Positions 1,953 through 27,439 of a stretch of DNA of 51,030 bases are shown in pieces. The notes under the pieces are model-generated. The model had not been told where the DNA came from. It saw nothing but the letters and a program-made list of their open reading frames with translations, and searched no databases. The translations under genes and the position numbers were made by a program. The stretch lies in assembly GCA_964516055.1 (NCBI GenBank), contig CAZEYK010000001.1:1-51030 (forward strand), in the 5' to 3' direction. Each line of letters opens with the position of its first letter. The stretch's first letter is position 1. This DNA is from an uncultured Gammaproteobacteria bacterium (GTDB lineage: Bacteria; Patescibacteriota; Patescibacteriia; Magasanikbacterales; UBA922).

Positions 1953-1997
1953 GATGCTCCCTGAAAAGATATATCGAAATATCATAAAAAATACATA

Positions 1998-3536: not shown

Positions 3537-3590
3537 AAATTCAGTATAAATAAATCAAAGATAGTATACCGTGAACCTAAGAAAAAAACA

Positions 3591-4988
3591 ATGATTTCTC
3601 TAAGCTACCGAGTAAAACAATTCATCTTGCTCAGCACAGATATCGCAAGTTTCTACATTGCCTTTATCATGAGTCTCACTCTCCGATATCAACGCCCACC
3701 AACGCCAGAAAACATACTACAGCATATTCCACTGTTTAGTATTGTGTTTTTTTTCTGGATTGTCCTGAACTATATTAATGGACTCTACGATCTTGTACAA
3801 TTATCATACACAAAAAAATATTATAGAAGACTCAGCGAAACCGCCATACTATCACTGATTGGAAGTGCCTGTTTTTTTTACCTTCTTCCCGCTAACCAAA
3901 ACATTACCCCAAAAACAATCCTTGTACTCAATGTTATCATTGGATACAGCATCAGCGCAGCACTTCGGGCAATGTATAACAGAATCATTGGAATCAAACG
4001 CCTACAAACAAATGTTATTTTCGTTGGAGTCACAAAAGAAACCGAAGAACTCATTGAGACCATAAAACAAAACCCCGAACGTGGATACAAAACGGTTGCT
4101 ATTATTGATCCGGAAAAACATATCAAAAATGCTACCTATGATCATTGCGAAGTATTTCACGGACTGCACACTATTCGCCCATGTATCACCAATTATCAAG
4201 GACATGTTGTCGTAATGGCCCCGCACCTCAAACAAAACGAAGATGCCCTCAGAGAATTATATCAACTCCTCTTTTGGAAAGTTCATATTATTGATTTACC
4301 CTCATTTTACGAAAGTATCACAGGAAGAATTCCCCCATCAACATTTTCTGAAAGCTGGTTTCTCAATCATCTCCAAAACAAAAATCACCCTGTCTACGAA
4401 AAAATACGAACCATTATTGACTATATTGCCATCGTATTTATTGGTGCCTACTTTATTCTTTTACTCCCTATTATTGCAATTACGATAAAGATTACCTCAA
4501 CAGGTCCTATCTTTATCAAACAAAAAAGAATTGGCCAACAAGGAAAAATATTTACCATGTACAAATTTAGATCCATGTACGCCCTTGCCGAAGATGGCAG
4601 CGCAGAAACAGATGGCTGGGAATTCGCCAAAAAACAAGACATCCGCATAACGTCTATAGGAACATTCTTACGGAAAACACGTATCGATGAACTTCCACAA
4701 GTCATCAATCTTTTCAAAAGAGATATCACACTCATTGGCCCACGGCCTGAACGCCCCGCAATTGTAGAAGAATTAGAAACACGCATGCCCTATTATCCTC
4801 TTCGTCATCTTGTACGACCGGGGCTTACCGGTTGGGCAGTGATTCACCAACACTATACCGACACACTGGAATCCTCACTCGAAAAACTGCAATACGATCT
4901 CTATTACATCAAAAATCGTTCTCTCCTCCTTGATATATCTATTCTCTTGCGAACAATAAATGTTGTTATGAGATTCATGGGACAATAA
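3591..4988 (+). CDS. Polyprenyl-phosphate glycosylphosphotransferase (WbaP/EPS sugar transferase family), initiating enzyme
   Basis: N-terminal TM helices are followed by the bacterial sugar transferase core IFIKQKRIGQQGKIFTMYKFRSM ... DELPQVINLFKRDITLIGPRPERP. The track ORF starts at a TTG (3513) that overlaps the divergent gene, so ATG 3591 (MISLSYRVKQ) is preferred. Confidence 0.85.
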   Translation: MISLSYRVKQFILLSTDIASFYIAFIMSLTLRYQRPPTPENILQHIPLFSIVFFFWIVLNYINGLYDLVQLSYTKKYYRRLSETAILSLIGSACFFYLLPANQNITPKTILVLNVIIGYSISAALRAMYNRIIGIKRLQTNVIFVGVTKETEELIETIKQNPERGYKTVAIIDPEKHIKNATYDHCEVFHGLHTIRPCITNYQGHVVVMAPHLKQNEDALRELYQLLFWKVHIIDLPSFYESITGRIPPSTFSESWFLNHLQNKNHPVYEKIRTIIDYIAIVFIGAYFILLLPIIAITIKITSTGPIFIKQKRIGQQGKIFTMYKFRSMYALAEDGSAETDGWEFAKKQDIRITSIGTFLRKTRIDELPQVINLFKRDITLIGPRPERPAIVEELETRMPYYPLRHLVRPGLTGWAVIHQHYTDTLESSLEKLQYDLYYIKNRSLLLDISILLRTINVVMRFMGQ

Positions 4989-5022
4989 AAAAATACAAGG
5001 AACGACATAAAAATTCACAAAT

Positions 5023-5052
5023 AAAAAATCCATCTGAGTAAGATGGGTTTTT
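5023..5052. terminator. Bidirectional intrinsic terminator between convergent genes
   Basis: A6 tract, then stem CCATCT (5030-5035) / AGATGG (5041-5046) with loop GAGTA, then a T5 tract. It lies between the WbaP-like stop (4988) and the epimerase stop (5070). Confidence 0.6.
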
Positions 5053-5069
5053 CGTACGTCGTACGTTAT

Positions 5070-5981
5070 CTACACACCAAAATCTTTTTTTAACATATCA
5101 ATACCCTCTTTCAAACTAACTGTTGGCTCCCAACCAAGGAGTTCCTTTGCTCGAGAACTATCAGCTTCCGTATACCGTACATCTCCTGGTCGATCAGGAA
5201 CATGTACTGATTCACCACCAATAAATTCCACAATATTATTAACTGAATGAGGATTTCCATTTCCTATATTAATCGTTTCCCCATTACATGCCGTATCTTT
5301 TGTCATCGCCAACATATTGGCTCGAACAATATCAGAAACATGCGTATAATCTCGATAATATTCTCCATCACCACAGATCGTCATTGGTTCACCATGTTTA
5401 ACTTGTTCCAAAAATTTGGCAATCACCAATGCATATGCTCCATGCGGATCAGCATACGGACCATACACATTAAAATACACCAAACTTACGGTTTCAAGAT
5501 TATATAACTCAGCAAACAACCGACAGTACTCTTCGCCAATAAATTTATGAAGTGCGTATGGCGCAATAGGTTTTTTAATAACCGTATCTTCTTTCAATGG
5601 ATACGTTTCTTGATTTCCATAAGAAGAAGATGATGATGAAAATACCACCCGTTTTACTCCATTATCTCGTGCAGCAAGAAGTACATTGAGCGTTCCATTT
5701 ACGTTTACATCATGAGTAAGTGCCGGATATTCCACAGAATAAGAAACCCGTGGCAATGCTGCCATATGAAACACACCCTCAACACCTTGCATCACCTTGT
5801 TCAAATCATCCATGTTGCGAATATCTCCTTCCACATATTCAGCTCCCTCTTGCATTCGCTCTTCCATTTTCCCGCCAGCATAATTATCAATAATACGCAC
5901 CTGATGTCCGTCTGCAAGAAGTTGTTTTGTTAAATTTGTTCCAATAAACCCGGCTCCACCGGTAATAAGATAGTGCGCCAT
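5070..5981 (-). CDS. NAD-dependent sugar-nucleotide epimerase/dehydratase (extended SDR; WbpP/TviC-like 4-epimerase candidate)
   Basis: ITGGAGFIGTNL Rossmann motif and a YxxxK catalytic motif in APYALHKFIGEEY. It sits directly downstream of a TviB/WbpO-type dehydrogenase. Confidence 0.75.
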   Translation of the reverse strand: MAHYLITGGAGFIGTNLTKQLLADGHQVRIIDNYAGGKMEERMQEGAEYVEGDIRNMDDLNKVMQGVEGVFHMAALPRVSYSVEYPALTHDVNVNGTLNVLLAARDNGVKRVVFSSSSSSYGNQETYPLKEDTVIKKPIAPYALHKFIGEEYCRLFAELYNLETVSLVYFNVYGPYADPHGAYALVIAKFLEQVKHGEPMTICGDGEYYRDYTHVSDIVRANMLAMTKDTACNGETINIGNGNPHSVNNIVEFIGGESVHVPDRPGDVRYTEADSSRAKELLGWEPTVSLKEGIDMLKKDFGV

Positions 5982-6025
5982 AATTAATTAAATAGTTAAT
6001 TGGTTAATGAATCGTCAATCAAACA

Positions 6026-7330
6026 TCACAGTGACCAATACGCCAAGCCAACATCTTCAATGTCCTGCCGATTATACAAATGTTTAATATCTGCCAGCAA
6101 GCAAGAGTGACCATTGGTAAATGCCTGTACTGTATGCGGATCCAACGAAGCAAACTCATCATGCGCCACACCAACAACAAGCAAATCAGCTTTTGGTAAT
6201 GCGTCCTTTTCTGTAAGAGAAAATCCATACTCATGCGCAACTTCAGCAACATCAGCATGAGGATCACACACAAACACCGTCATACCAGCAGCAATAAATG
6301 CGCGATACATATCAACCACTTTTGAATTGCGAATATCCGGAATATTTTCTTTAAACGTTACTCCCAACATCACAACAGTGGCATCTTTTGGATCTTTTCC
6401 TAACTGTCGCAATTGATCCATTAATGTTTCCGCAATAATGGTAGGTATCCTATCATTTATTCCTCTCCCCGCCAAAATAACATCTGGAGAATATCCAAGC
6501 TGTGTTGCCTTATGCGTCAAATAATAAGGGTCCACTCCAATACAATGTCCTCCAACAAGTCCTGGCTTGAACGGTAAAAAATTCCATTTTGTTCCTGCTG
6601 CCGCAAGCACATCATAAACACTAATATTCATGTGCGCAAAAATAAGCGAAAGCTCATTCATAAGCGCAATGTTTAAATCACGCTGCGTATTTTCAATAAC
6701 TTTTGCGGCTTCAGCTACTTTAATAGATGACGCTTCAAATACCGTTGTAACCGTACCATACACGCCAGCAATCACTGCCAAACTTTCTTTATTCATACCA
6801 GAAACAACTTTCACCACCTTATCAATAGTATGTTCTTTATCACCAGGATTCACTCGTTCTGGGGAATACCCAATCAAACAGTGTTCTGGGGCATGCAACG
6901 AAGCGGCTGCTTCAAGAATAGGCAAACATATTTCTTCTGTTGCGCCAGGATACACTGTAGATTCATAAACCACAATGGAACCCTCAACCATATGCTCCCC
7001 TACCATTTGTGAAGCCTTTTTGAGAATAGTTAAATCAGGTTCTTTATCATCGGTAATTGGCGTAGGGACGGCAACAATAATAAATTTTGCATCGGCAATA
7101 GATGCGGGATCATCACTATAAAAAATCGTCGCCTGTTGTAATTCAGCAGAATCAACTTCTTTTGTCACTTCAATCCCCTGTTTCAACTCAGCAATACGCG
7201 TTTTATTTACATCAAATCCAATCACGGAAAAATGTTTCGATAACAACACCGCAAGTGGCAATCCCACATACCCAAGTCCCACCACACAAACCTTTTCTTG
7301 CTTTGATTGTAACTGTTCAAGTGTAACCAT
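6026..7330 (-). CDS. Nucleotide-sugar 6-dehydrogenase, UDP-N-acetylhexosamine type (TviB/WbpO/WecC-like)
   Basis: VCVVGLGYVGLPLAVLL NAD motif. The catalytic-Cys motif GGHCIGVDPYYL is typical of the UDP-GlcNAc/GalNAc/ManNAc dehydrogenase branch, not GGSCxxKD. Confidence 0.8.
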   Translation of the reverse strand: MVTLEQLQSKQEKVCVVGLGYVGLPLAVLLSKHFSVIGFDVNKTRIAELKQGIEVTKEVDSAELQQATIFYSDDPASIADAKFIIVAVPTPITDDKEPDLTILKKASQMVGEHMVEGSIVVYESTVYPGATEEICLPILEAAASLHAPEHCLIGYSPERVNPGDKEHTIDKVVKVVSGMNKESLAVIAGVYGTVTTVFEASSIKVAEAAKVIENTQRDLNIALMNELSLIFAHMNISVYDVLAAAGTKWNFLPFKPGLVGGHCIGVDPYYLTHKATQLGYSPDVILAGRGINDRIPTIIAETLMDQLRQLGKDPKDATVVMLGVTFKENIPDIRNSKVVDMYRAFIAAGMTVFVCDPHADVAEVAHEYGFSLTEKDALPKADLLVVGVAHDEFASLDPHTVQAFTNGHSCLLADIKHLYNRQDIEDVGLAYWSL

Positions 7331-7396
7331 AAATAAAATGTATTTACCGTATTTATCAAAAAATGTAATACTTTTCTAAACAGATATTTGTGCTTT

Positions 7397-7672
7397 GGGG
7401 TATACTACCCCCAGCCAGCTCCATAGTGGCATAGCTCTGTGGATCTAGCTGCAAGAAATGATGCCAAAATAATATGTCATCCTGAGCGTAAGGAGGAGTA
7501 CCACGACGACTGAAGTCGAAGGATCCCGATGCAGAAAGCAAAATTTTCTATCACGAGATCCTTCGACTCCATTCGCTCGTTCCTTGCTCATTACGCTCAG
7601 GATGACATACTTCACAGCCTTGTCGGGCTTGCCTACCAGTAGGCAAAACTATGGAGCGAGAATCGTATCCCC
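7397..7672. repeat. ~276-bp imperfect palindromic (MITE-like or REP-like) element in the intergenic region
   Basis: Perfect 19-bp inverted repeat TATGTCATCCTGAGCGTAA (7473-7491) / TTACGCTCAGGATGACATA (7591-7609). Inner 12-bp pair AGTCGAAGGATC (7514-7525) / GATCCTTCGACT (7557-7568). Outer pair GCTCCATAGT (7418-7427) / ACTATGGAGC (7648-7657). Termini GGGGTATAC (7397-) / CGTATCCCC (-7672). Confidence 0.7.
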
Positions 7673-7695
7673 TTATAATTCGTAAATGAAAATTA

Positions 7696-9087
7696 TTAAT
7701 TATTCGTAATTCCCAAAAACGGAGACCCCACCGCAATAAGCGAAAATCCTGCCTTTTGCAACTCATCATATCGATGCTGCAACATCCTTCGCCCATCCAT
7801 AATAAGTGCATTCTTTTCTGGAAGAGCCAAAAGTACCTCCGCAACCTGTCGAAACTGTGGCCAATCCGTCGCAATAATAACCACATCCGCATGCATCGTA
7901 GCAGAACGAATATCCGCCATGTACACCAGTTGCTCACTCGCCGGAAAATCCATTCCAAACATATCATTTGCCACAGGATCATACAATCGTACTTCCTTTA
8001 CCCGCTTCTCTTGCAAAAATCGCACAATATCAAGACTTGGACTATTGCGTGTATCATTGGTATCTTGCTTAAATGCAAGTCCCAAAAGCGCAACTGTTTT
8101 TCCTTGCCAGTCAAATCCAGCTTCCGTTTCTGGCCGAGACAAAAATAATTCTAGCTGCCGTTTATTAGCAAGATACGTTTCATTCACAAGCGAAGAAACT
8201 TTTCCCGCTGTTTGTAACTGATGAGAAAGCGATCGAGCATCCTTGATCAAACAACTTCCCCCAGCATACAAACTATTATAAAATCCCCAATTACTAATTC
8301 GTTTATCCGCGGTAATAATAGACCGAACGTTTTCAAAGGTCACATCATCAAATGCTTCACACGTTCTCCCAATCACATCAAAACATTGCGCAAGCTTACT
8401 AAACAAATAATAATTTGCGAGAAGTTTTCCTGCCGCGGCTTCCTTTGGACTCACTTCAAGATATCCAACCGTTGATGAAGTATAAAATCGATTATATATA
8501 TTTCGCATAATACCAAAATCTTGTTCAGATTCTGCTCCCACCACTACACGATCTGGACGAATAGATCCTTCAATTGCTTTTCCTTCAACCAAAAATTCTG
8601 GATTAGACACCACCCCAAAGTTTGTAACACCTGCTTTCATTAATAACTCTTTGGTCATATCAATCATATCAATGGGAACCGTACTTTTGTTGACAATAAC
8701 TACATATTTTTGTTGAGCACCACCATTCCGTTTGGCTAGTGCGACTGCCAATTGTTCTGCTGCTGCGGTATAATAGGTAAGATTACTTTCTCCTGTTTCC
8801 CCAATTTCTGGTGTTGGCAGACACATGAACACGGCATCACACGTATCAAGGAATGCAAAAACTTCTTGATAATCACTCGTAAAACGCAAATGGTCTGCAT
8901 GTTGAGCACACATTTCCGCAAGTTCCTTTTCATGCAAGTACGATTCAATACGTGTTTTATCAAGTGAAGCAAAGGCGGCTATTTTTTCTGTATCAATATC
9001 AAAAACAAGCGTGTTGTGCCCACTATCCGCAGACACCGCCGCACTACACGCCCCCACAAATCCGCCTCCAATATATAAGATATTCAT
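7696..9087 (-). CDS. ugd: UDP-glucose 6-dehydrogenase family protein
   Basis: MNILYIGGGFVGACSAAV NAD motif and catalytic motif GGSCLIKDARSL. Length is 463 aa with an ATG start. Confidence 0.8.
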   Translation of the reverse strand: MNILYIGGGFVGACSAAVSADSGHNTLVFDIDTEKIAAFASLDKTRIESYLHEKELAEMCAQHADHLRFTSDYQEVFAFLDTCDAVFMCLPTPEIGETGESNLTYYTAAAEQLAVALAKRNGGAQQKYVVIVNKSTVPIDMIDMTKELLMKAGVTNFGVVSNPEFLVEGKAIEGSIRPDRVVVGAESEQDFGIMRNIYNRFYTSSTVGYLEVSPKEAAAGKLLANYYLFSKLAQCFDVIGRTCEAFDDVTFENVRSIITADKRISNWGFYNSLYAGGSCLIKDARSLSHQLQTAGKVSSLVNETYLANKRQLELFLSRPETEAGFDWQGKTVALLGLAFKQDTNDTRNSPSLDIVRFLQEKRVKEVRLYDPVANDMFGMDFPASEQLVYMADIRSATMHADVVIIATDWPQFRQVAEVLLALPEKNALIMDGRRMLQHRYDELQKAGFSLIAVGSPFLGITNN

Positions 9088-9115
9088 ACTATCAAATAAT
9101 TACCTAGACAACACG

Positions 9116-9161
9116 GTCATCTCGAGTAACCTCGGCAACAGCCGGGGCATCGAGAGATCTC
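9116..9161. repeat. Degenerate half-copy related to the left arm of the 7397-7672 palindromic element
   Basis: GTCATCTCGAGTAACCTCGGCAACAGCCGGGGCATCGAGAGATCTC resembles GTCATCCTGAGCGTAAGG...GTCGAAGGATC at 7476-7525 in its start, end and length. Confidence 0.4.
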
Positions 9162-9373
9162 AATGTATTTATTAGTTATATTACTGAAATGAAATATACC
9201 CAAAAATTTCATGACTACCTAGCTCCAAAAGTGTACAGGAATCCTCTTTTTTTTTCAATAAAAACGAAAAACATAAAAAAAGGGGGCTTGGGGGCGGCGT
9301 CATGAAAAAATCACAAATATTCAATATTATGATAAAACCACACAAAACAATCGTCCGCCCCCAAAACTTTTTG

Positions 9374-9397
9374 TTCCTTTTTGGTTACAAAAAGGAA
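9374..9397. other. Perfect 10-bp stem-loop in a long non-coding region
   Basis: TTCCTTTTTG (9374-9383), loop GTTA, CAAAAAGGAA (9388-9397). Its role (terminator remnant or leader structure) is unknown. Confidence 0.5.
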
Positions 9398-9502
9398 ATA
9401 TACTCAATTTCCTAGCTAATCCCATAGTAGCGTAGAACTGTAGAATCACATTGTCACCTATAGCCTATCCTATCTAAATATTACCTATACCCACAAAACA
9501 AC

Positions 9503-9531
9503 TTGACAAGAACACAAAAAAAGACTATATT
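9503..9531 (+). promoter_or_regulatory. sigma70-like promoter facing the GC-rich island
   Basis: TTGACA (9503-9508), a 17-nt spacer, then TATATT (9526-9531). It lies in AT-rich DNA about 195 nt upstream of the kinase ATG. Confidence 0.55.
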
Positions 9532-9589
9532 GCCCTGTTATCTAAGATGCCTATTTTGTAGTTAACACAGCTAAAAAATATACACCTGG

Positions 9590-9626
9590 ATAGCAAAAAC
9601 CACTCAAAGAGTGGACATTTTGCTAT
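9590..9626. other. Nested 15-bp hairpin at the AT/GC transition (5' leader of the island operon)
   Basis: Outer stem ATAGCAAAA (9590-9598) / TTTTGCTAT (9618-9626). Inner stem CCACTC (9600-9605) / GAGTGG (9609-9614). Confidence 0.5.
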
Positions 9627-9726
9627 TCAACAGTCCTTTACAATTCAACACTACGAAAAAAAACACAGATCCATCGGCGTCAGCCAATGCGATCTATACC
9701 CGCCGCAATGCGGCAGGAGTGACACC

Positions 9727-11409
9727 ATGGCTGACAATACCAACAAGAACTATCGCTACATCGACAACGACCAGTTCGGAGGAAAGGTGCTCGAGCCTGG
9801 ATCCAAGATCCAGAACACGGACATCACCGTCCTCGACATCCTTGGCGCCGGCTCATTCGGCGTCGCCTACCTCTGCCAGAACAACGGGCAGGGACAGGTC
9901 GTCGTCAAGATGCTTCGGCAGAAGTTTCGTGGGGATTCTACCCATGTGAAACTGCTGATGCACGAGTGTGACATCGGCATCGGTTTAAAGAGCATCTCCC
10001 AGGTCGCCGGAGCATTTCAGTTCGGCGATCACGACGGCATGCGCTACATCGTGCTGCCGTACATCAAAGGTGAGACGCTCGAAAAGAAACTCCGGAATAA
10101 AAAAATGACGGAAACGGAGGATGTTGTGAGGTTCTTCTTGAGCTTCCTCGACGCAGTGCATCTCATGCACAGCGCCGAGTGCATCCACCGCGACCTGAAA
10201 CCGGAGAACATCATCGTCCGCGAGGAAGATGGTGCCGCGTGCATCATCGACCTCGGCACAGCAACCCATGTCGGGGAGAAAGAAGGTGACAACGTCTATA
10301 AGACCCAAGACGGGCAGGGCGGTGTACGCGGAACCCCCGTGTACATGTCTCAACTCCAATTCTCTCACAAGGCGGCATCCCCCAAAATGGACCTCTTCGC
10401 AATCAGCGTCATGCTGTTCGAGGCCATCACGGGAAAGATGCCCATCGAAGTACAAGAGGGAGATGCCTACACGGACGTCTACCGCAAGTACTTCCAACAA
10501 AAGCACTATGAGAGCCTGGATCAGCTCGTCAAGAATGACGCAAAGCTCTCCATGTTCTTCCAAGTGCTGAAAATGGGTTTCAAAAGCGGCGAGCTCGGCC
10601 CCGAAGAAGGGTCCTACTTCGCCAGCGCGGAGGAATTCCTCGACGCGCTGAAGAACATCTGCGAAGTCAACTTCCCCACCCTCTGGGCGGAGATCAGCCG
10701 CCAGGAGGCGAAGGAAAAAACAGGCATGATGAACATCGGCGACATCATCACCCAGATCGACGACAACAAAAGGACCAATCGTCCCAAGGTCGTCGACACG
10801 GCAGACACCATGCCACCCGCCGAGGTTCACCTTGCCGCGACGGCTGAGGCGATCGAAATCACCCTCCCCCCGGGTAAGGCTGGTTCTTTCGCCAAAATCA
10901 CCGTAGCGGTGGTAGGAGCACTCATGCTCCTCGCCGCCATCGCCCTTGGAGCCATCTGGCTCCTGAGCAACGACGAGGTCACCACCAACCCCAAAACAAT
11001 AAACACCGTGCAGCAAGAGGACAGCAGGGATGTCAACGAATATCCCGCTGAACTCGAACAGCCATCCTCTCCCGACGCAGAGTCCTCAGACGCGAGCACG
11101 CTCGCGGACAAGGCTCCGCAACAGGAGAAAGACATCGGTGTCAAAGATACAGGGGGGGAAGCAAAAGTCGAAGAAGACGCGTCCAAACAGGACGTCGTCG
11201 TCAAGACTGACACCTCGCCAAAGAAGCCACCAAAAGTCGTACCTCGTCGCCGTCGCACTCGCCCCCCAAAGGTCGAGGACAACAGCAACAACGGTGCAAA
11301 AACAGATACGCCACCCACCGAGAAAAAGAAGCCAAAAAGCTTCCTCACCAAACCGCCCAGCGGTACGGAGAAGAAGCCAAAAAGCTTTCTCAACGGAGGT
11401 GGCAAATGA
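9727..11409 (+). CDS. Hanks-type Ser/Thr protein kinase with one TM helix and a Lys/Pro-rich low-complexity tail
   Basis: AGGAG lies 7 nt upstream of the ATG. Kinase motifs: G-loop LGAGSFGVAY, VVKML lysine, catalytic loop HRDLKPENIIV, IIDLGTA (DFG-like), GTPVYMS. TM helix FAKITVAVVGALMLLAAIALGAIWLL. The tail carries a duplicated EKK(K)PKSFL. Third codon positions are strongly G/C. Confidence 0.9.
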   Translation: MADNTNKNYRYIDNDQFGGKVLEPGSKIQNTDITVLDILGAGSFGVAYLCQNNGQGQVVVKMLRQKFRGDSTHVKLLMHECDIGIGLKSISQVAGAFQFGDHDGMRYIVLPYIKGETLEKKLRNKKMTETEDVVRFFLSFLDAVHLMHSAECIHRDLKPENIIVREEDGAACIIDLGTATHVGEKEGDNVYKTQDGQGGVRGTPVYMSQLQFSHKAASPKMDLFAISVMLFEAITGKMPIEVQEGDAYTDVYRKYFQQKHYESLDQLVKNDAKLSMFFQVLKMGFKSGELGPEEGSYFASAEEFLDALKNICEVNFPTLWAEISRQEAKEKTGMMNIGDIITQIDDNKRTNRPKVVDTADTMPPAEVHLAATAEAIEITLPPGKAGSFAKITVAVVGALMLLAAIALGAIWLLSNDEVTTNPKTINTVQQEDSRDVNEYPAELEQPSSPDAESSDASTLADKAPQQEKDIGVKDTGGEAKVEEDASKQDVVVKTDTSPKKPPKVVPRRRRTRPPKVEDNSNNGAKTDTPPTEKKKPKSFLTKPPSGTEKKPKSFLNGGGK

Positions 11410-12422
11410 AGCAGGAGAACAAGAACATCATGAACAGAACCATGTCGTTCCTCGCTGCCACGCTCGTGGTGGTGGGGATGCTCCTGGGTTGGGGAAACCT
11501 GGCCCAGGCGCAGTCGGACGAAGTCCTCATCACCAAGGCCGAGCAGGCCATGGTAAAGAAGGACTACGTCCAAGCCATCGAGCTGTACACCCAGCTCTCC
11601 AACCGCAACAAGGACATGTCGGTGTACAAAGTCAACCTCGCGTTGGCCTACATGTCCATGAACGACGTCTGCTCGGGCCTCAAGTGGTTCGAGCAGGCGT
11701 CAAAAAACGAAGATCTGCCGCAAAGCGACGCGGCTGTCATCCAGACTGAATATCTGGAAGGATCATACGCCTGCCAAACCCTCACCGTGACCATCATCCC
11801 CCCTAAAAAGGGTGTGAAGCTCACGGTCGAAGGCAAGCTCGTCGCCACGACGGACAAAAACGGCAAAGCGACCATCGCCAAGCCGTTCACGTCCGTCGGT
11901 CAGATCACCCTTGTCGCCACCACCGACAACCGCACGGCGTCCACCACCGTGGACATCCCGTACGGTATCGGGGAAAAGTCCGTCACCATCACCCTGCCCA
12001 AGCCTACCAAAGGCAACGGCATCGTGTGGACCGACGACAAGAAGACTGATGAGGATGAGTTCGAAGTTGGCACCAAGCATCTCACCGTCATCGGCGTCGG
12101 GACCCTGTCCCTCGCGCTGGTGACAGGCGGCGTGTTCGCCAACATTTCGGCCGCGGGAAAATACGGAGAACTCGAGACCCTCGCGGGCAAACAAGCCCGT
12201 GGAGAGCTCAGGTCTCCCGCCGAAGCCGCGAAGCTTCAAGGGGAGCTCGACGACATGAACCAGTTGATGACAGCAATGTACATCAGCGGCGGCCTCCTGG
12301 CTGCCGCCGACGTCGCGCTGTTCTTCTACTGGGAAGCCGAGGAAACCAACAACAACACCCCCACCGTCACCATCACCCCCATGCGGGATGGTGGCACCGC
12401 GGTGTTCACCCTCCCCTTCTGA
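11406..12422 (+). CDS. Exported TPR-like / beta-sandwich (PEGA-like) protein with two C-terminal TM segments
   Basis: ATGA overlap with the kinase stop. Signal-like FLAATLVVVGMLLGWGNLAQA. TPR-like helix pair KAEQAMVKKDYVQAIELYTQL. Beta-rich segment TVTIIPPKKGVKLTVEGKLVATTDKNGKATI. TM segments LTVIGVGTLSLALVTGGVFANI and MYISGGLLAAADVALFFYW. Confidence 0.7.
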   Translation: MKQENKNIMNRTMSFLAATLVVVGMLLGWGNLAQAQSDEVLITKAEQAMVKKDYVQAIELYTQLSNRNKDMSVYKVNLALAYMSMNDVCSGLKWFEQASKNEDLPQSDAAVIQTEYLEGSYACQTLTVTIIPPKKGVKLTVEGKLVATTDKNGKATIAKPFTSVGQITLVATTDNRTASTTVDIPYGIGEKSVTITLPKPTKGNGIVWTDDKKTDEDEFEVGTKHLTVIGVGTLSLALVTGGVFANISAAGKYGELETLAGKQARGELRSPAEAAKLQGELDDMNQLMTAMYISGGLLAAADVALFFYWEAEETNNNTPTVTITPMRDGGTAVFTLPF

Positions 12423-12429
12423 AACAACA

Positions 12430-12448
12430 GGGGAGGCAACGCCTCCCC
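12430..12448 (+). other. GC-rich intercistronic hairpin
   Basis: GGGGAGGC (12430-12437), loop AAC, GCCTCCCC (12441-12448), with no following T-run. It lies between island genes 2 and 3. Confidence 0.45.
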
Positions 12449-12466
12449 CCAACAAGGAACACAATC

Positions 12467-14515
12467 ATGAAACAGTTCATCCATTTCCTGATGGGGATGG
12501 GGATGGCGATGCTATTCGTCGTCTCCGGCGGCTGTGAGAGCAGCCTCATCACCTGCGAAAAGAGCGCAGACTGCCCCGCGCACGCTTCGACGTGCTCCGA
12601 GGGCATCTGCATCACGCAGATCTCCATCGACAACGACACCGACGGCAACAACGACGGCAACAACGACAGCGATGTCGTCAACCCCGACGTCCCCGATACG
12701 GACAACGACACCTCCGACGCCGACGTCCCCCTGGACAACGGCTGCGGCGGTTCGGTGGAATTCCCAGAGGGTCAACGCCCAGGCGACCCCTGCGGCGAAA
12801 ACGACGAAGGGATGTGGGAGTGCGCCGGACAAAACGCCGTTCAGTGCAACGCCCCCAACCGCAACGCGTGTGGTGGCGAACAAGAGCTCAACGACGTACC
12901 CGGCACGATGTGCGGCGACGTGTGTCGCGATGGTTCACTCCGCTGCGACGAGGATGGTGAAAACCTCTTCTGCGCTGGCGAAAACGAGCCGTCAAATTGG
13001 TACCTCGACCTCGACGAAGACGAATACGGCGCGGGCGACCCCGCCGAGTTCTGTCCGAGTCAAGAAAGAGGTGCCTACACCGCCACTGTTGGCGGTGACT
13101 GCAACGACACGGACCCCGACGTCCACCCCGACGCCACCGAGATCTGCGACGGAATGGACAACAACTGCAACGGCGACTCTGACGAGCCGCTGAACGCCTG
13201 CGGGAGTTGTCAGGTCCTCCGCGGAGAGCCCGGCACCACTTGTGGTGAAGGACTCGATTGCGGATCAGGGACCTGGGAGTGCATGGGCGGCAACGTCCAG
13301 TGCACCCCCGGCGAGAACTCAGATCTCAACGCCTGCGGCGGATGCAGCACCCTCAGCCATGAGCCTGAAGAGGCTTGTGGTCAGTGCGGTGCCTACGCCT
13401 GCGACGGCGAAAACGCCACAATGTGCGTTGGCGCCGAGCCCAACAACGTTTGCGGCGGGTGCAACGCCCTGTCAAGCGACGTTGGCGCGCCCTGTGGCGC
13501 CTGCGGCGAGTATATCTGCAACGGTCGGGACGCTGTGCAATGCAGCGACCCCGGCCGCAATGCCTGTAATGGGTGTGGTGTTCTGGCTCATCAGCCCGCC
13601 ACGTCCTGTGACGAATGTGGGACCTACACCTGCAACGGCCCCAACACCGTCACCTGCAGCAACGACGTAGGCTTCAACGCCTGCGGCGTCTGCGACCGCA
13701 ACGGTGGTGTCTGCTGCGGCACAACCCTGTGCCCGCAGTCACCGCAAGGCTGGCCTGCGACCTGCAACGAAAAAGATCACTGCGAGTATGCTCCAGCCGA
13801 CGAGCTGGAGTTCTACAAAACGGTGATCTACGTTCCCCCCGGGAGCTTCCTCATGGGGGGACCCGAAGGAATTGAGAATGAAAAACCCGTACACGAGGTA
13901 ACATTCGTGCAAGGGTACTTCATTGCAAAGTTCGAGACCACCAGCGAGTGGTACGAACAATGCCCTCCATGCTTGGAGCAGCAGCGATCAATTGCCAACG
14001 GCAACGTTGGCAACTGGGGGCTCAACACCTCCAGCAACGGTCGCTCGCTCCACCCCGTCAACGGCGTCAACAAAAATGACGCCACCACCTTCTGTCTCTG
14101 GGCAGAAGGTCGACTCCCCACAGAAGCCGAATGGGAATTCGCCGCCACAGGAGAAAATCACAGGATCTACCCCTGGGGGGATGTTAATGGAACCTGCAAC
14201 CAGGCAATACTAACAATCTGTGGTTCCTTGGGGACCACAGAAGTGGGAACAGCAGCTGGGGGCGTCACCCCCAAAGGATGTCTCGACATGATCGGCAACG
14301 TAGCCGAACATGTAAGCGACGCCTACCACCCAACATATGAGGGTGCCCCAAATGACGGCACATCATGGGATGAGGGTGGAGAACCTGGAACCATAGTCAT
14401 CCGCGGCGGGGGGTATCACCAGGATACCCCCCGCATATCACACAGAGTAAGCTCGTTTAGTGACGAGCGAAACGCAATGACAGGATTCAGGTGTGTCTTC
14501 TTTGGCCTCCCCTAG
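12467..14515 (+). CDS. Lipoprotein with Asp/Asn-rich linker, ~6-7 Cys-rich repeats, a MopE-like metal-binding motif and a C-terminal FGE-sulfatase (SUMF1/PvdO/GldK-type) domain
   Basis: Lipobox-like MLFVVSGGC. Repeats of the form NACGGCxxLxxxPGxxCGxCGxYxCxGxxxVxC. MopE-like motif DCNDTDPDVHPDATEICDGMDNNCNGDSDE. C-terminal domain: YVPPGSFLMGG..EKPVHEVTF..LPTEAEWEFAA..IRGGGY..GFRCV (about 13820-14506). Confidence 0.85.
   Translation: MKQFIHFLMGMGMAMLFVVSGGCESSLITCEKSADCPAHASTCSEGICITQISIDNDTDGNNDGNNDSDVVNPDVPDTDNDTSDADVPLDNGCGGSVEFPEGQRPGDPCGENDEGMWECAGQNAVQCNAPNRNACGGEQELNDVPGTMCGDVCRDGSLRCDEDGENLFCAGENEPSNWYLDLDEDEYGAGDPAEFCPSQERGAYTATVGGDCNDTDPDVHPDATEICDGMDNNCNGDSDEPLNACGSCQVLRGEPGTTCGEGLDCGSGTWECMGGNVQCTPGENSDLNACGGCSTLSHEPEEACGQCGAYACDGENATMCVGAEPNNVCGGCNALSSDVGAPCGACGEYICNGRDAVQCSDPGRNACNGCGVLAHQPATSCDECGTYTCNGPNTVTCSNDVGFNACGVCDRNGGVCCGTTLCPQSPQGWPATCNEKDHCEYAPADELEFYKTVIYVPPGSFLMGGPEGIENEKPVHEVTFVQGYFIAKFETTSEWYEQCPPCLEQQRSIANGNVGNWGLNTSSNGRSLHPVNGVNKNDATTFCLWAEGRLPTEAEWEFAATGENHRIYPWGDVNGTCNQAILTICGSLGTTEVGTAAGGVTPKGCLDMIGNVAEHVSDAYHPTYEGAPNDGTSWDEGGEPGTIVIRGGGYHQDTPRISHRVSSFSDERNAMTGFRCVFFGLP
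12734..13726 (+). repeat. Coding tandem array of ~38-40-aa cysteine-rich repeats (Myxococcus-type disulfide repeat-like)
   Basis: Seven units, the last partial, each begin with N[AGV]C: NGCGGSVEF.., NACGGEQEL.., NACGSCQVL.., NACGGCSTL.., NVCGGCNAL.., NACNGCGVL.., NACGVCDRN... Confidence 0.75.
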
Positions 14516-14540
14516 AGCCTAGGGTTGAGGTCTTCCCCAT

Positions 14541-14565
14541 ACCCGACTGTATTCTGCAGTCGGGT
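14541..14565 (+). other. GC-rich 9-bp hairpin just after the island stop codon (possible donor-type terminator without U-tract)
   Basis: ACCCGACTG (14541-14549), 7-nt loop, CAGTCGGGT (14557-14565). Confidence 0.45.
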
Positions 14566-14569
14566 CATC

Positions 14570-14602
14570 AAAAAAGCATTGAATAATATTCAATGCTTTT
14601 TT
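14570..14602. terminator. AT-rich bidirectional intrinsic terminator between convergent units
   Basis: A6 (14570-14575), palindrome GCATTGAATA-A-TATTCAATGC (14576-14596), T6 (14597-14602). It lies between the island stop (14515) and the minus-strand stop (14638). Confidence 0.75.
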
Positions 14603-14637
14603 GTTTATTACTAAATTGTAAAATACAAAAAAATAAT

Positions 14638-15348
14638 TTACTGTTCCAATAGATGTTTCATTCGTGCTTCAGCCACAATCCAATCATCCTTACTATCAAT
14701 ATCTTGCGAATACACCGTATCCATTTCATATCCATACCGTCTTTTCCCCCACAAAGAACCTTCCAATAAATTATTAACCCGAAACGCATAAATGGCAGAA
14801 TTCACATAATATGTTATTGGTAAATCCTGATTTCTCTTAAAATTGGTGCATTCTGATTTTACAACAGGCATAACAATTTCATCACCAATGTTTTCTAATT
14901 GTTTCAAATAACTCATCCTACCAGGAACTCGAGAAATACCAACCAAAGAATCAATATCATCCCGTTCCTCAATAATTTGTTTTACCTCTTGAATATGAAA
15001 AGATTGTCTGCCTGGACAAGAAGGCTCTAATAAAATAATCCAATCAGCATAATACTTTCTATTTTCCCTCATCCAATTAACAGCATGAATGACGACATCT
15101 AGTGACGTCGCCATATCAGTAGCCAACTCTGCTGGTCTAATAAAAGGAACATCCACACCATGAGCTTTACCAATACTTGCAATTTCTTCATCATCAGTAG
15201 ACAAAATAAAATGATCGAAAACATTACTTTGTTTTCCAACATCAATACTCCAAACAAGCAATGGCTTACCCAAAAATTCTTTAATATTCTTCCTAGGTAA
15301 ACGCTTTGATCCACCACGGGCAGTAATAAGGCCTAATATTTTTTTCAT
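14638..15348 (-). CDS. CMP-nonulosonic acid synthetase (acylneuraminate cytidylyltransferase family), copy 1
   Basis: MKKILGLITARGGSKRLPRKNIK..GKPLL.WSI motif. It is clearly paralogous to 39404-40135, sharing FDHFILSTDD, VPFxRPAELATD and YYxNSAIYAFRV. The track ORF's 34-aa N-terminal extension overlaps the upstream gene, so ATG 15348 is preferred. Confidence 0.8.
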   Translation of the reverse strand: MKKILGLITARGGSKRLPRKNIKEFLGKPLLVWSIDVGKQSNVFDHFILSTDDEEIASIGKAHGVDVPFIRPAELATDMATSLDVVIHAVNWMRENRKYYADWIILLEPSCPGRQSFHIQEVKQIIEERDDIDSLVGISRVPGRMSYLKQLENIGDEIVMPVVKSECTNFKRNQDLPITYYVNSAIYAFRVNNLLEGSLWGKRRYGYEMDTVYSQDIDSKDDWIVAEARMKHLLEQ

Positions 15349-15355
15349 AAATAAA

Positions 15356-17323
15356 CTATATATGCAAACCACACTCATTATTACCCGTATCATGAAATCG
15401 TCCCTTTCTTTCTTCGTTAGCAACATCACTTTTTTTTGTACAAGGTTCACAACCTAAAGAAGTATATCCTTCATTATATAATGGATGATATGATAACTTA
15501 TACGTTCGTAAATATTCCCATACATCATCTTTTGTCCAAAATGCAATTGGATTATACTTTACAATATTTTCTGATTTTTCAATAATAGGAGTATATTGTC
15601 GTTGAACACTTTCATCACGACGTAATCCGGTAATCCATGCATCATACTTATCTAAAATGGGAACAATGGCAGGTTTTTTCATGGCACAACACATATACTG
15701 TCCTTCATGAATAAACGAATTTGCAAACGTACTTTTTATTTCAGAAATATCATCTTCAGTAGGACGAACCCACAAAAGATTCATATGAATTTCTTGCTCT
15801 AATTCTTTTGCAAAACGAAGTGTCTCTGGAAATTCATATCCAGTATCAATACTAACAAACAAAGCATCAGACTTAATTTGCATAACTAAATCAGCAATAA
15901 CTCGAGAATCCTTACCAAATGAACAAGCAACAAACAAATTTGGATGAACCAAAAATGCATGTTCAATAATTATTTTTGAAAGTTCTACCTTTTCTTCAAG
16001 AGTTATGTTTTTTTTAGGAACATCCAATAAAAGAGGTTCTTCTTGAATGTCAGGCAACATTTTTTTCTCTGATGGAGTAATAACCCCAGCAGCAACAGTA
16101 TCTCCTGTAACTTCATCAATTAATATAAAACTTCCCAATTTTTTATTCTTCTTGTATGAATCAAAAACAAATGGTTCATGAGTAGTAAAACGCACCTTAC
16201 CTATCTGATTAAGTTCCACTTGAGAGGCTTCTTGATATTCCCCATTCAAAACATCAATAACAGAAAAAACAGTATTAATAAAACAAAAAGTCTCCTTTGT
16301 CGTTTGTTTGATAATATATCTATTTTTCTTTACCGCAGGTTGTTTATTAAACCAAAACACCACAGCATCAATATTGTTAGAAACAATAGGTTCATTACCA
16401 ACACGCACCACAATATCCCCTCGACTGACATCAATTTGGTCAACAAAACTCATAACAGCAGCCTGTCCATTAAACGCATAACTCACATCTTCTTCTGCTA
16501 CAGAAATATGTTCAATAAAAGATTCAACACCTGATGGTAAAACTTTTATATTATCTCCAACAAGAAATACTCCTCCAGCGACAGTCCCTGCATACCCTCG
16601 AAAATCTTGATCAGGACGAACAACATATTGCACAGGAAAACGAGCATCCACCATATTACGGGAAGAGATAACAGGAACATCATGAATATATTCAAGTACT
16701 GTCTGACCAAAATACCATAACAAATTATTGCCACGAGTAGCAACCATATCACCTTTTAAAGCAGAAACCGGAATAAACTGAATATTTTTTATACCAATAT
16801 TTCTCGTAAACAATTGAACATCATCCCTTATGTTTTCAAAAACACCTTGATCATATGACACCATATCCATTTTATTCACAACAACTGCGACATGGGGAAT
16901 ATTCAATAAAGAAAGGACAAAAAAATGACGTCTTGTTTGCACAGTCATTCCTTTTCTTGCGTCAATCACAATCAATGCAACTTGAGAATGAGAAGCACCT
17001 GTAACCATATTTCTTGTATATTCTTCATGACCAGGAACATCGGCAATAATAAACGTTCTTTGATTAGAAGAAAAATATCTATATGCTACATCAATAGTAA
17101 TTTTTTGTTCTCGCTCAGCTTCAAGACCATCTGTAAAAAGTGAATAATCAAGTTCATCCTCAATGTGTTCAGTATTTTCAACAGCTTGTATTTGATCTTC
17201 ATACACATTACCCGTATCATAAAGAAGCCTTCCTATTAAAGTTGATTTTCCATCATCTACACTTCCAGCAATAACAAGAGTAAGTAATTCCATGTTTCGA
17301 TTGTATTTACGTTTATTCTCCAT
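15356..17323 (-). CDS. cysN: Fusion: sulfate adenylyltransferase subunit 1 (CysN GTPase) + Fe-S type APS/PAPS reductase (CysH family)
   Basis: CysN part (aa 1-417): GSVDDGKSTLIGRLL, DVPGHEEY, NKMD. CysH part (aa ~441-655, nt 16003-15359): PP-loop-like ACSFGKDS, the Cys pair QYMCCAMKKP, GCEPCT, and the C-terminal ECGLH motif. Confidence 0.85.
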   Translation of the reverse strand: MENKRKYNRNMELLTLVIAGSVDDGKSTLIGRLLYDTGNVYEDQIQAVENTEHIEDELDYSLFTDGLEAEREQKITIDVAYRYFSSNQRTFIIADVPGHEEYTRNMVTGASHSQVALIVIDARKGMTVQTRRHFFVLSLLNIPHVAVVVNKMDMVSYDQGVFENIRDDVQLFTRNIGIKNIQFIPVSALKGDMVATRGNNLLWYFGQTVLEYIHDVPVISSRNMVDARFPVQYVVRPDQDFRGYAGTVAGGVFLVGDNIKVLPSGVESFIEHISVAEEDVSYAFNGQAAVMSFVDQIDVSRGDIVVRVGNEPIVSNNIDAVVFWFNKQPAVKKNRYIIKQTTKETFCFINTVFSVIDVLNGEYQEASQVELNQIGKVRFTTHEPFVFDSYKKNKKLGSFILIDEVTGDTVAAGVITPSEKKMLPDIQEEPLLLDVPKKNITLEEKVELSKIIIEHAFLVHPNLFVACSFGKDSRVIADLVMQIKSDALFVSIDTGYEFPETLRFAKELEQEIHMNLLWVRPTEDDISEIKSTFANSFIHEGQYMCCAMKKPAIVPILDKYDAWITGLRRDESVQRQYTPIIEKSENIVKYNPIAFWTKDDVWEYLRTYKLSYHPLYNEGYTSLGCEPCTKKSDVANEERKGRFHDTGNNECGLHI

Positions 17324-18275: not shown

Positions 18276-19301
18276 CTAATATAAATCTTCAATAAGAACC
18301 AAAGTATCCTCTTCAATAAATTTTTTAACCTTTTTTCCTAATACTTTATGAACATACCCCGTAGCAAGGCCCTTACCAGGTCGCTTAAATACGATATCAC
18401 TCCTTTCAAGAACTTTACCAACGGGGATATCCTTAGCAGCCACAATACTTTGACTTGCCCATCCCCTTGCAGCAATTATATGATCAACACGATTGGAACT
18501 TGCAGGAAGAATAGATGCTTCAACATCACGAATTTGTTTAACCATTTGCTTTAAATCTTCAGGATCACATGAAACAGGACAATCAAATGATCTTTTATCT
18601 GTTTTATCAAAAGAAAGATGTTTTTCAATAAGTTTTGCACCAAGCGCAACAGCCGCAATAGGAATATGTAAACCAATAGTATGATCGGAATATCCAATAG
18701 GACAATCTAATTGATTCTTTAACTGAGTAATAGTTCCCAAACTATTTATATCAACAGGAGTAGGATAAATAGTATTGCAATGCAACGCGACAATATCAAT
18801 GAGTCCCTCAGATTCCATAATAGAAAGAGAATTATGAATTTCTTCAACCGATTTATGGAGACCAAAAGAAACAATAACAGGCTTACCCCGAGAAGCAACA
18901 TTACGCAAAAAATCATTATTAATACTTTCTCCAGAACCAATCTTAAAAAATGGAATATCTAAATCTTTATCAATAAATTCTAAATCAACTTCCGTATGAG
19001 AAGTAACAAAAAAATCGATATTACGAATTTCACAATATTCCTTCAACATTCGTAAATCATTATATGAAAGTTCTTTATACTTTAATCGACTATACCAATA
19101 AGGATCTACCTTTTTTGAAACAAGTGCTTCCGTCGTTTGTGCTTGAAACTTAATAGCATCAGCACCAGCAGCCATAGCAGCATCTACCTGCCTCTTTGCA
19201 AGTGCAATGTCACCCCAATTTGTTAAACCTCCTTCTGCAACGATGTAGACAGGATATTCTTCACCGATGAAACCGTTACCAATACGTACTTTATTATTCA
19301 T
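18276..19301 (-). CDS. NeuB-family nonulosonic acid synthase (divergent), copy 1
   Basis: YIVAEGGLTNWGDIALAKRQVDAAMAAGADAIKFQ, compared with canonical IAEIGxNHNG. Metal-ligand contexts ALHCNTIYPTP and GYSDHTIG. C-terminal SAF-like IVAAKDIPVGKVLERSDIVFKRPGKG. Confidence 0.75.
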   Translation of the reverse strand: MNNKVRIGNGFIGEEYPVYIVAEGGLTNWGDIALAKRQVDAAMAAGADAIKFQAQTTEALVSKKVDPYWYSRLKYKELSYNDLRMLKEYCEIRNIDFFVTSHTEVDLEFIDKDLDIPFFKIGSGESINNDFLRNVASRGKPVIVSFGLHKSVEEIHNSLSIMESEGLIDIVALHCNTIYPTPVDINSLGTITQLKNQLDCPIGYSDHTIGLHIPIAAVALGAKLIEKHLSFDKTDKRSFDCPVSCDPEDLKQMVKQIRDVEASILPASSNRVDHIIAARGWASQSIVAAKDIPVGKVLERSDIVFKRPGKGLATGYVHKVLGKKVKKFIEEDTLVLIEDLY

Positions 19302-27426: not shown

Positions 27427-27439
27427 ACAACAATAAATA

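Follow-up and report, generated by a model that had tools for sequence, protein, structure and literature searches.

The 51,030-nucleotide (nt) stretch analysed here (the window: positions 1 to 51,030 of contig CAZEYK010000001.1, assembly GCA_964516055.1) belongs to Candidatus Magasanikbacteria of the candidate phyla radiation (CPR, or Patescibacteria), the host being recognized from flank proteins identical to proteins PIR77470-72 of a metagenome-assembled genome (MAG). It carries a surface-glycan locus of more than 50 kb, transcribed from the minus strand except for a WbaP-like gene (3513-4988), and the gap between two glycan transcription units is occupied by a 4.9-kb GC-rich island of three plus-strand genes, an operon that runs head-on to all surrounding genes bar the WbaP-like one. 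An earlier reading of the letters alone (the sequence-only reading) had taken this island for a very recent, un-ameliorated acquisition from a high-GC, Myxococcota-like donor, and had rightly noted that, among credible genes, its three genes and the WbaP-like gene are the only ones on the plus strand. We conclude that the island is a laterally derived accessory cassette, carrying a receptor Hanks-kinase module, in a CPR genome, and we argue below that its acquisition was probably old.

The first gene of the island (9727..11409, plus strand) would encode a receptor-type Hanks Ser/Thr kinase of 560 amino acids (aa), judging from its Pkinase domain (Pfam PF00069, 5e-33, 115 bits) and the intact motifs GAGSFG, VVVK, HRDLKPEN and DLG. 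An N-terminal, cytoplasmic kinase domain is followed by one membrane span (~390-412), the only hydrophobic segment of the protein, and by a low-complexity outer tail of ~150 aa, which evolves fast and ends at the extreme C-terminus (11320-11409) in two tandem copies of (D/E)KKPKSFL. The best PDB matches of the kinase are StkP, at the top, and PknE. The second gene (11406..12422, plus strand), whose start overlaps the kinase stop codon by 4 nt, encodes a 338-aa membrane protein with weak Pfam matches only (TPR and Big_1). Based on AlphaFold2 and Foldseek, it consists of a signal or anchor segment, a TPR-like five-helix domain, an Ig/PEGA-like beta-sandwich and a predicted transmembrane helical hairpin, in this order; the AlphaFold2 model reached a pLDDT of 85-90 over residues 35-200 (helices 32-117, strands 121-196) and was of low confidence in the C-terminal hairpin. 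Foldseek matched the protein to peptide-binding TPR domains (Sgt2, CHIP) and to a 76-77-residue chain of the RtkS-PpkA complex 9k1u, the latter resemblance (E = 3e-4, target TM-score 0.69) concerning the beta-sandwich, a small and common fold.

The third gene (12467..14515, plus strand) encodes a putative Cys-rich lipoprotein of 682 aa, whose signal peptide ends in Cys23. An acidic linker comes next, and ~49 Cys are arranged in repeated NxCGGC modules. By the Pfam threshold it is predicted to be a protein with the MopE-type, putatively metal-binding motif (Cu-binding_MopE, PF11617; one copy at residues 211-240, 2e-11, 44.2 bits against a cut-off of 27), and five more NxCGGC modules go unmatched by the MopE model. 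Residues 452-677 form a C-terminal, C-type-lectin-like FGE-sulfatase domain (PF03781; 3e-39, 135.6 bits against a cut-off of 23.3). In alignments with the S. coelicolor FGE structures 2q17 and 6muj, the catalytic copper-binding Cys pair (...LCH.SYC...) is missing from this domain, both Cys lying in insertions of those structures that have no counterpart in the query (RGGGY--HQ---DTPRISHR). The FGE fold is present but both catalytic Cys are not, and we rejected the protein as an FGE enzyme; the missing pair suggests a binding or structural role instead. Its nearest PDB relatives are ToxD (7spq, 6e-15) and PvdO (5hha, 7e-7 over the last 101 aa), with PorK at 1e-4.

Upstream of the operon, the intergenic region (9088-9670) is AT-rich and holds, according to a consensus scan, a predicted sigma-70-like promoter on the plus strand (TTGACA-17 nt-TATATT, 9503..9531, 11 of 12 positions), 195 nt upstream of the kinase start codon. 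Two plus-strand leader hairpins follow (9552-9580 and 9588-9628), delimited by RNA folding, a terminator scan and comparison with a related contig (L045, described below); the fold energy of the leader is -55.2 kcal/mol (z = -5.2). The second hairpin, made of an A-tract, a GC stem and a T-tract, has a terminator-like score on both strands and may serve as an attenuator or insulator. No riboswitch or other known RNA was matched in the leader by Rfam, even at E <= 1. The rise in GC, placed by a change-point at 9671, falls inside the 5' untranslated region of the kinase gene, whose GC-rich part (9671..9726, plus strand; GC 0.61 over 9666-9726) includes the ribosome-binding site AGGAG. At the right border (14541..14603), delimited by hairpin, palindrome and terminator scans and a change-point at 14566, a GC-rich hairpin (14541-14567) precedes an AT-rich, perfect 17-bp palindrome that lies between A6 and T6 (14569-14603). 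The latter, an inverted repeat with 100% complementarity, resembles a bidirectional terminator that would also serve the convergent cytidylyltransferase gene.

The sharp GC step at both borders, on which the sequence-only reading had rested, was confirmed. GC per 500-nt window ranges from 0.55 to 0.65 in the island (mean 0.589), as against a mean of 0.342 (sd 0.041, maximum 0.45) outside it, so that the island stands out by z = 5-6; its tetranucleotide L1 distance to the rest of the window is 0.82, compared to 0.12-0.24 for all other 4.9-kb chunks. Two-state maximum-likelihood change-points fell at 9671 and 14566 (9640 and 14568 in the earlier reading). Hand counts of 57% and 67% GC for two 60-nt lines inside the island were reproduced (56.7 and 66.7%), whereas the count of 37% outside was slightly off (35.0%). 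Similarly, third codon positions do contrast strongly, the three island genes having a GC content at these positions (GC3) of 0.72, 0.82 and 0.71 and 32 other genes one of 0.18-0.36, but "almost all G/C" overstated the case. Further GC-rich segments, which had been named in advance as a sign against the island, were found neither in the window nor in ~10 kb of flanking sequence (~7.6 kb rightward and 2.3 kb leftward). With its atypical GC, codon use and oligonucleotides, the high-GC island is a genuine compositional anomaly. It is located where two compositional domains of the glycan locus meet, the left flank (1-9600) having a GC of 0.40 and GC3 of 0.27-0.36 and the right flank (14600-51030) a GC of 0.33 and GC3 of 0.18-0.27. 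Across the whole window strand asymmetry is very strong, with a plus-strand GC skew of -0.2 to -0.45 and third positions holding C 0.05 and G 0.19 in minus-strand genes, C 0.27 and G 0.09 in the plus-strand WbaP gene.

Relatives of the island proteins proved to be few. Two word-indexed searches of 5.8 billion proteins returned no close homologues of the kinase and the FGE-domain protein, the best non-self matches being 26-35% identical for the kinase (kinase domain only) and 27-30% for the full-length FGE protein. When the middle protein was searched exhaustively with HMMER, only two relatives emerged (59% and 41% identity), to which a profile search added none, and among 1.8 to 5.8 billion proteins this protein is restricted to three lineages. 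The distribution is thus patchy, with homologues in unrelated taxa. Scans of GTDB representative genomes for the host and an empty site returned first nothing and then only Bacteroidota and other distant relatives of the flank gene, and JGI metagenomes, scanned with an alignment of the TPR protein and one of the Cys-rich protein, gave no matches. Two full-length relatives of the FGE protein, P0013 and P0059, show no synteny with the island, as they sit in unrelated Memo/radical-SAM/AMMECR1 operons on contigs of 67% GC.

The relative at 59% identity lies on L045, a 10.5-kb contig of the unrelated run ERR10643346, in which the gene order is that of the window: a 512-aa protein, WbaP, an epimerase and two dehydrogenases, then, on the opposite strand, the kinase (with DFG for DLG), the TPR protein and the Cys-rich protein. 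Protein identity between window and L045 is 53-76% for the five flank genes and 28%, 56% and 37% for the three island genes. The AT-rich promoter and leader can be aligned between the two as well, including the -35 block (CTTGACAA) with its surroundings and both hairpins, whose equivalents in L045 lie at about 6546-6628; the inner stem differs between the two by changes on both strands (CCACTC/GAGTGG as against CCTC/GAGG). The flanks of L045 have a GC of ~0.40 and GC3 of 0.26-0.32, its island a GC3 of 0.57-0.69. A shorter contig, L046 (1.8 kb), carries in the same order a kinase tail with the KKPKSFL repeat (GC3 0.31), the TPR protein (0.52) and the start of the Cys-rich protein (0.73). The KKPKSFL tandem is thereby kept in three lineages (the window, L045 at 8270-8363 and L046 at ~200-340). 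Some 280 bp of intergenic DNA in the window (9088-9370) have no counterpart in L045; they include a GC-rich long-range stem (~9283-9297 with 9353-9365) around a possible small open reading frame (ORF) starting at 9302, and gave only chance-level Rfam hits.

An assembly chimera or binning contamination, in which a high-GC fragment was fused to a CPR contig, would mimic such a block, and several features of the assemblies could be taken to favour it. Using exact-protein look-up, we recovered 13 contigs (L001-L013) from ENA and JGI assemblies and compared them to the window by blastn. The ends of seven of them lie within the island, the contigs of one assembly break exactly at the left junction (9675-9691), and the stretch is apparently missing from an older NCBI MAG (locus tags COU30_). 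However, all 13 match the window at 99.99-100% identity, barring artefactual ends of L010 and L011, and both junctions are spanned, identically, in five independent assemblies produced by different assemblers: by four of the 13 contigs (ENA ERZ27293358, ERZ27293356 and ERZ27293386; JGI 3300025035) and by NODE_113 of ERZ22295043, a SPAdes contig of 112 kb (coverage 5.7) within which the whole window lies. Eight further contigs cross one junction or stop within the island, a region that is fragile in assembly yet repeatedly bridged. Moreover, the left junction and the gene order recur in the diverged L045, from another data set, and the operon is framed by host-type promoter and terminator sequences. 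A chimera is therefore exceedingly improbable, effectively refuted, and the island is real. The contig breaks suggest either a drop in coverage from GC bias or hidden heterogeneity. A second strain, seemingly indicated by L011 (99.1% identity), was rejected because its differences all fall in the last 120 nt of the contig, a divergent and probably chimeric end inside a dehydrogenase gene (window 6458-6578); the end of L010 (8072-8113) is Illumina adapter.

As to the age of the insertion, the comparison of the window with L045 is telling. At four-fold degenerate sites under identical amino acids, the residual similarity beyond chance is 0.10 (0.04-0.16) in the minus-strand flanks, 0.12 in WbaP and 0.16 (0.08-0.23) in the island, and Nei-Gojobori pS is 0.59-0.73 throughout. 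Since both measures are similarly near saturation, island and flanks have diverged equally, and almost fully, at silent sites. This equal silent divergence, along with the shared site and the shared leader, argues for one acquisition before the lineages split. Our favoured reading, which we hold to be probable without being secure, is a single old horizontal acquisition before at least two, probably three, CPR lineages split, followed by vertical inheritance together with the promoter and leader.

This leaves little room for the first proposal, in which a Myxococcota-like donor of high GC supplied the island very recently and no amelioration followed. Such a transfer would be in keeping with a GC and GC3 step that is sharp and bounded by gene borders, with domain families typical of Myxococcota, with the window copy being the most GC-rich of the three known and with a MopE gene of GC3 0.91 in another CPR genome (~0.58; L051, see below), given which similar transfers into CPR seem to occur. 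Nevertheless, a recent arrival should be absent from related lineages, leave a close homologue in its donor and be donor-like at all codon positions and in its amino acids, and none of this was observed. L045 carries the orthologous cassette and leader at the same site, next to flanks of 53-76% identity and with near-saturated synonymous sites, and among the 5.8 billion proteins neither the kinase nor the FGE protein has a homologue above 35% identity. Furthermore, GC1 and GC2 of the island match those of the left-flank genes, and the kinase and TPR protein are host-like in amino-acid composition (GARP 0.23-0.24, FYMINK 0.26-0.28), lying outside the 5-95% range of 119 kinase homologues (GARP 0.27-0.41, FYMINK 0.12-0.22) and unlike high-GC homologues. 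Finally, the island genes, with a GC3 of 0.71-0.82 and a C3 double their G3, fall short of the values typical of Myxococcota and do not resemble them. Neither "very recent" nor "un-ameliorated" can thus be upheld, and we regard this scenario as highly unlikely.

Alternatively, related cassettes from a GC-rich donor pool might have been inserted or swapped repeatedly at the same hotspot, each copy being young in its host. Glycan loci are recombination hotspots, and the one at hand is itself mosaic, as indicated by a CysN-PAPS reductase fusion whose best relatives among GTDB representatives are Bacteroidota, at ~45% identity. Recurrent acquisition would also account for a high GC3 despite saturated divergence between copies, and the kinase (28%) is far more diverged than the flanks. 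In contrast, both lineages share a homologous AT-rich promoter and leader, which run without a break into the GC-rich 5' untranslated region, copies of the cassette are known only from three CPR-like contexts, and the proteins lack a high-GC amino-acid signature. The island also lacks mobility genes, direct repeats and att-like sites. Scans of the 51-kb window yielded neither a tRNA nor an Rfam family, and no integrase or transposase turned up among all its ORFs, which bears out the earlier failure to see an integrase, transposase, tRNA target or convincing direct repeats. The sole border repeat is inverted and imperfect (9637-9665 / 14594-14622, 72% complementary). It was rejected as the ends of a transposon or invertible segment, its 9-mer core occurring at chance frequency (3 observed, 2.4 expected), with no recombinase at hand and the orientation constant in all assemblies and L045. 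Taken together, repeated insertion appears unlikely to us, and we retain the single old acquisition. Two other origins were rejected. A plasmid or phage source found no support, as the island has no DNA match in plasmid or phage collections. A diversity-generating retroelement target, which in CPR often has an FGE/C-type-lectin fold, was discarded too: no ORF of the window has a reverse-transcriptase domain, no island segment is repeated elsewhere in the window or within the island, and the third gene is identical across all assemblies.

The main unexplained point is the persistence of silent-site GC. The GC excess is limited to third codon positions and short spacers (spacer GC 0.55-0.61), with third positions at C3 0.50 and T3 0.11 in the island compared to T3 0.49 and C3 0.05 in the flanks. 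We modelled its decay with one parameter (F81-type, equal rates), this model being our own inference, and obtained a compositional deviation that would have fallen to ~0.3-0.4 of its start in each lineage. Here lies the chief difficulty for an old insertion: even from an ancestor of 100% GC, the model caps four-fold GC at ~0.64, whereas the window has 0.79 and L045 0.59, so that under this model the old insertion must invoke unequal rates or a force that maintains GC; unequal lineage rates would just rescue neutral decay, from an ancestor with a four-fold GC of ~0.9. Other points weigh against it as well. L045 is the sole relative with flanks and its contig stops in the third gene, such that the right junction and the FGE domain are seen only in the window; neither an empty site nor closer relatives were found in the collections searched (GTDB representatives, JGI contigs); the protein searches yielded no specific donor; and contigs of one assembly break at the left junction, as described above.

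If GC is indeed being maintained, the cassette would be what may be termed a silent-site GC island, i.e., an operon conserved in AT-biased CPR genomes in which an active process keeps synonymous and spacer positions GC-rich (GC3 0.6-0.8), and has done so for as long as it took silent sites to saturate and the proteins to acquire a host-like amino-acid composition. We advance this only tentatively, as a rather unlikely possibility. Holding GC in this way would need a local force beyond the standard amelioration model, candidates for which are selection on the DNA or mRNA composition of a head-on operon and strongly GC-biased conversion. Were it true, the island would be an exception to the amelioration model that is used for dating transfers. 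Translational-accuracy selection, on the other hand, was rejected as the cause of the high GC3, as this is equal at conserved and variable residues (0.78 and 0.74, p = 0.17, Akashi-type test).

A related alternative is that the cassette is native, having become GC-rich in place, or that it keeps its GC by a local force, its composition in either case not being inherited from a donor. It would fit with host-like GC1, GC2 and amino acids alongside an excess found at third positions and spacers only, with a GC3 raised in all three lineages (0.52-0.82), with the window value lying above the neutral equal-rates expectation and with a third-position skew (C>G, A>T) that follows the plus-strand bias of the host. 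Yet no known mechanism lifts GC3 from ~0.3 to 0.8 over 4.9 kb in a bacterium, the conserved and variable residues bear no sign of selection for accuracy, and WbaP, the other plus-strand gene, has a GC3 of only 0.36. The domain families, moreover, are seldom seen elsewhere in CPR but are frequent among high-GC bacteria, and neutral decay from a GC3 of ~0.9 is just possible if lineage rates are unequal. A native origin is accordingly rather doubtful in our view; the cassette is most likely of foreign type and entered the lineage by horizontal transfer.

The guess of a Myxococcota-like donor holds at the level of domain families only; beyond that, no close donor homologue came out of the 5.8 billion proteins. 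The MopE motif, FGE-sulfatase domains, Hanks kinases and TPR/PEGA-like membrane proteins are all enriched in Myxococcota and "Deltaproteobacteria" among named hits, those of MopE being mostly Myxococcota, "Deltaproteobacteria" or Bradymonadaceae, and the contigs that carry distant TPR/PEGA-type homologues of the middle protein have a GC of 61-67%. At this level, a high-GC, Myxococcota-like source is plausible. A comparable block exists in the Patescibacteria MAG GCA_046350895.1, where a gene for a 975-aa protein with 10 MopE repeats (L051, 10001-12928; GC 0.68, GC3 0.91) forms a gene-delimited GC-rich segment in a glycan locus of GC ~0.52 and GC3 0.53-0.66. This suggests that MopE-type genes enter CPR glycan loci repeatedly. 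A Woesearchaeota gene combining MopE and FGE is host-like in composition.

As for what the cassette might do, its domain content suggests a three-gene cell-surface sensor and kinase operon, and we propose that it specifies a receptor kinase split across three proteins. The lipoprotein would display the non-catalytic, lectin-like FGE domain and the Cys-rich modules at the cell surface and bind an external ligand. The TPR/beta-sandwich membrane protein would act as a scaffold and may bind the extracellular C-terminal KKPKSFL repeats of the kinase, this tail being a candidate TPR partner because the matched TPR domains bind short C-terminal peptides. The single-span Hanks kinase would then relay the signal inward by phosphorylating cytoplasmic targets, possibly the adjoining glycan-synthesis enzymes. 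A functional link between the first and third genes is suggested by the fusions of a kinase with an FGE-sulfatase domain that occur among the kinase homologues (P0155, P0230, P0252 and P0265). It speaks against leaning heavily on this scheme that the function, the contact between TPR domain and kinase tail and the targets are all read from domain content.

Comparison with known systems shows both likeness and difference. The four fused kinase-FGE receptors combine the same two domain families in the same predicted topology, with a cytoplasmic kinase, one membrane span and an external FGE-like domain. In the island, by contrast, the sensor is a separate lipoprotein with Cys-rich/MopE modules, the gene for the TPR/beta-sandwich protein lies in between, and identity to any of the fused examples is at most ~30%. 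PvdO, ToxD and PorK/GldK, the last being type IX secretion lipoproteins, are non-catalytic proteins of the FGE fold that the C-terminal domain of the third island protein matches; unlike them, this protein has an N-terminal Cys-rich/MopE array and sits in a kinase operon. CPR bacteria are thought to be single-membraned, unlike the Serratia and Pseudomonas systems in which accessory proteins act on a kinase of this type. In the latter, RtkS-PpkA (Serratia) and TagQRST-PpkA (Pseudomonas), a periplasmic partner activates a Hanks kinase (PMC10482370, PMC6082577). The island would resemble these in putting a membrane Hanks kinase under the control of extracytoplasmic accessory proteins that include a lipoprotein, and differs from them in having no type VI secretion genes, FHA protein or PppA phosphatase. 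TagR, of the Pseudomonas system, may itself have an FGE-like domain.

Genomic islands have been detected by composition, in the hundreds, in 125 CPR genomes from an aquifer (PMC12455944). Like those, the present one is an accessory block of atypical composition in a streamlined CPR genome, at a cell-surface locus and with its donor unrepresented; unlike those, it has no integrase, tRNA target or repeats, and its anomaly is confined to silent sites. The same study expects old transfers to become undetectable as their GC and tetranucleotide content drifts, whereas this island is common to diverged lineages and still strongly atypical. A methodological caution follows, in that a sharp GC step was read as a very recent transfer where comparative data show an old one, and composition alone can thus mis-date an insertion. 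Composition-based binning could lose such blocks altogether, as the older NCBI MAG that appears to lack the stretch illustrates. Very little is known of how CPR bacteria, which are ultra-small episymbionts, signal and build their cell surface. An operon for a receptor kinase that is conserved within their glycan locus is a candidate for sensing of the host or partner and for control of the surface coat.

The island is flanked on its left by a UDP-sugar dehydrogenase gene (7696..9087, minus strand), which opens the leftward glycan unit and matches the N, central and C domains of Pfam UDPG_MGDP_dh. It is host-like in composition (GC3 0.31), and its product is 67% identical to the L045 orthologue. 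On its right lies a gene for a NeuA-like CMP-sugar cytidylyltransferase (14638..15348, minus strand; Pfam CTP_transf_3), the last gene of the rightward unit, likewise host-like in composition (GC3 0.25) and with a product of 236 aa in independent assemblies. The locus further comprises sulfate-activation genes, glycerophosphotransferases, an ABC exporter and glycosyltransferases, as well as three sets of NeuB, NeuA and 2-epimerase genes. The three paralogous NeuB genes (18276-19301, 26368-27468 and 38341-39399) each have their own epimerase and cytidylyltransferase, implying several different nonulosonic acids. The fusion mentioned above (15356-17323), a 655-aa CysN-like GTPase with a PAPS-reductase-like domain, adjoins CysD. 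Another fusion, of 929 aa (42460-45249), joins a nucleotidyltransferase, a 3-dehydroquinate-synthase-like domain and an APH-type kinase, and may be an enzyme activating a cyclitol or sugar phosphate for the glycan.

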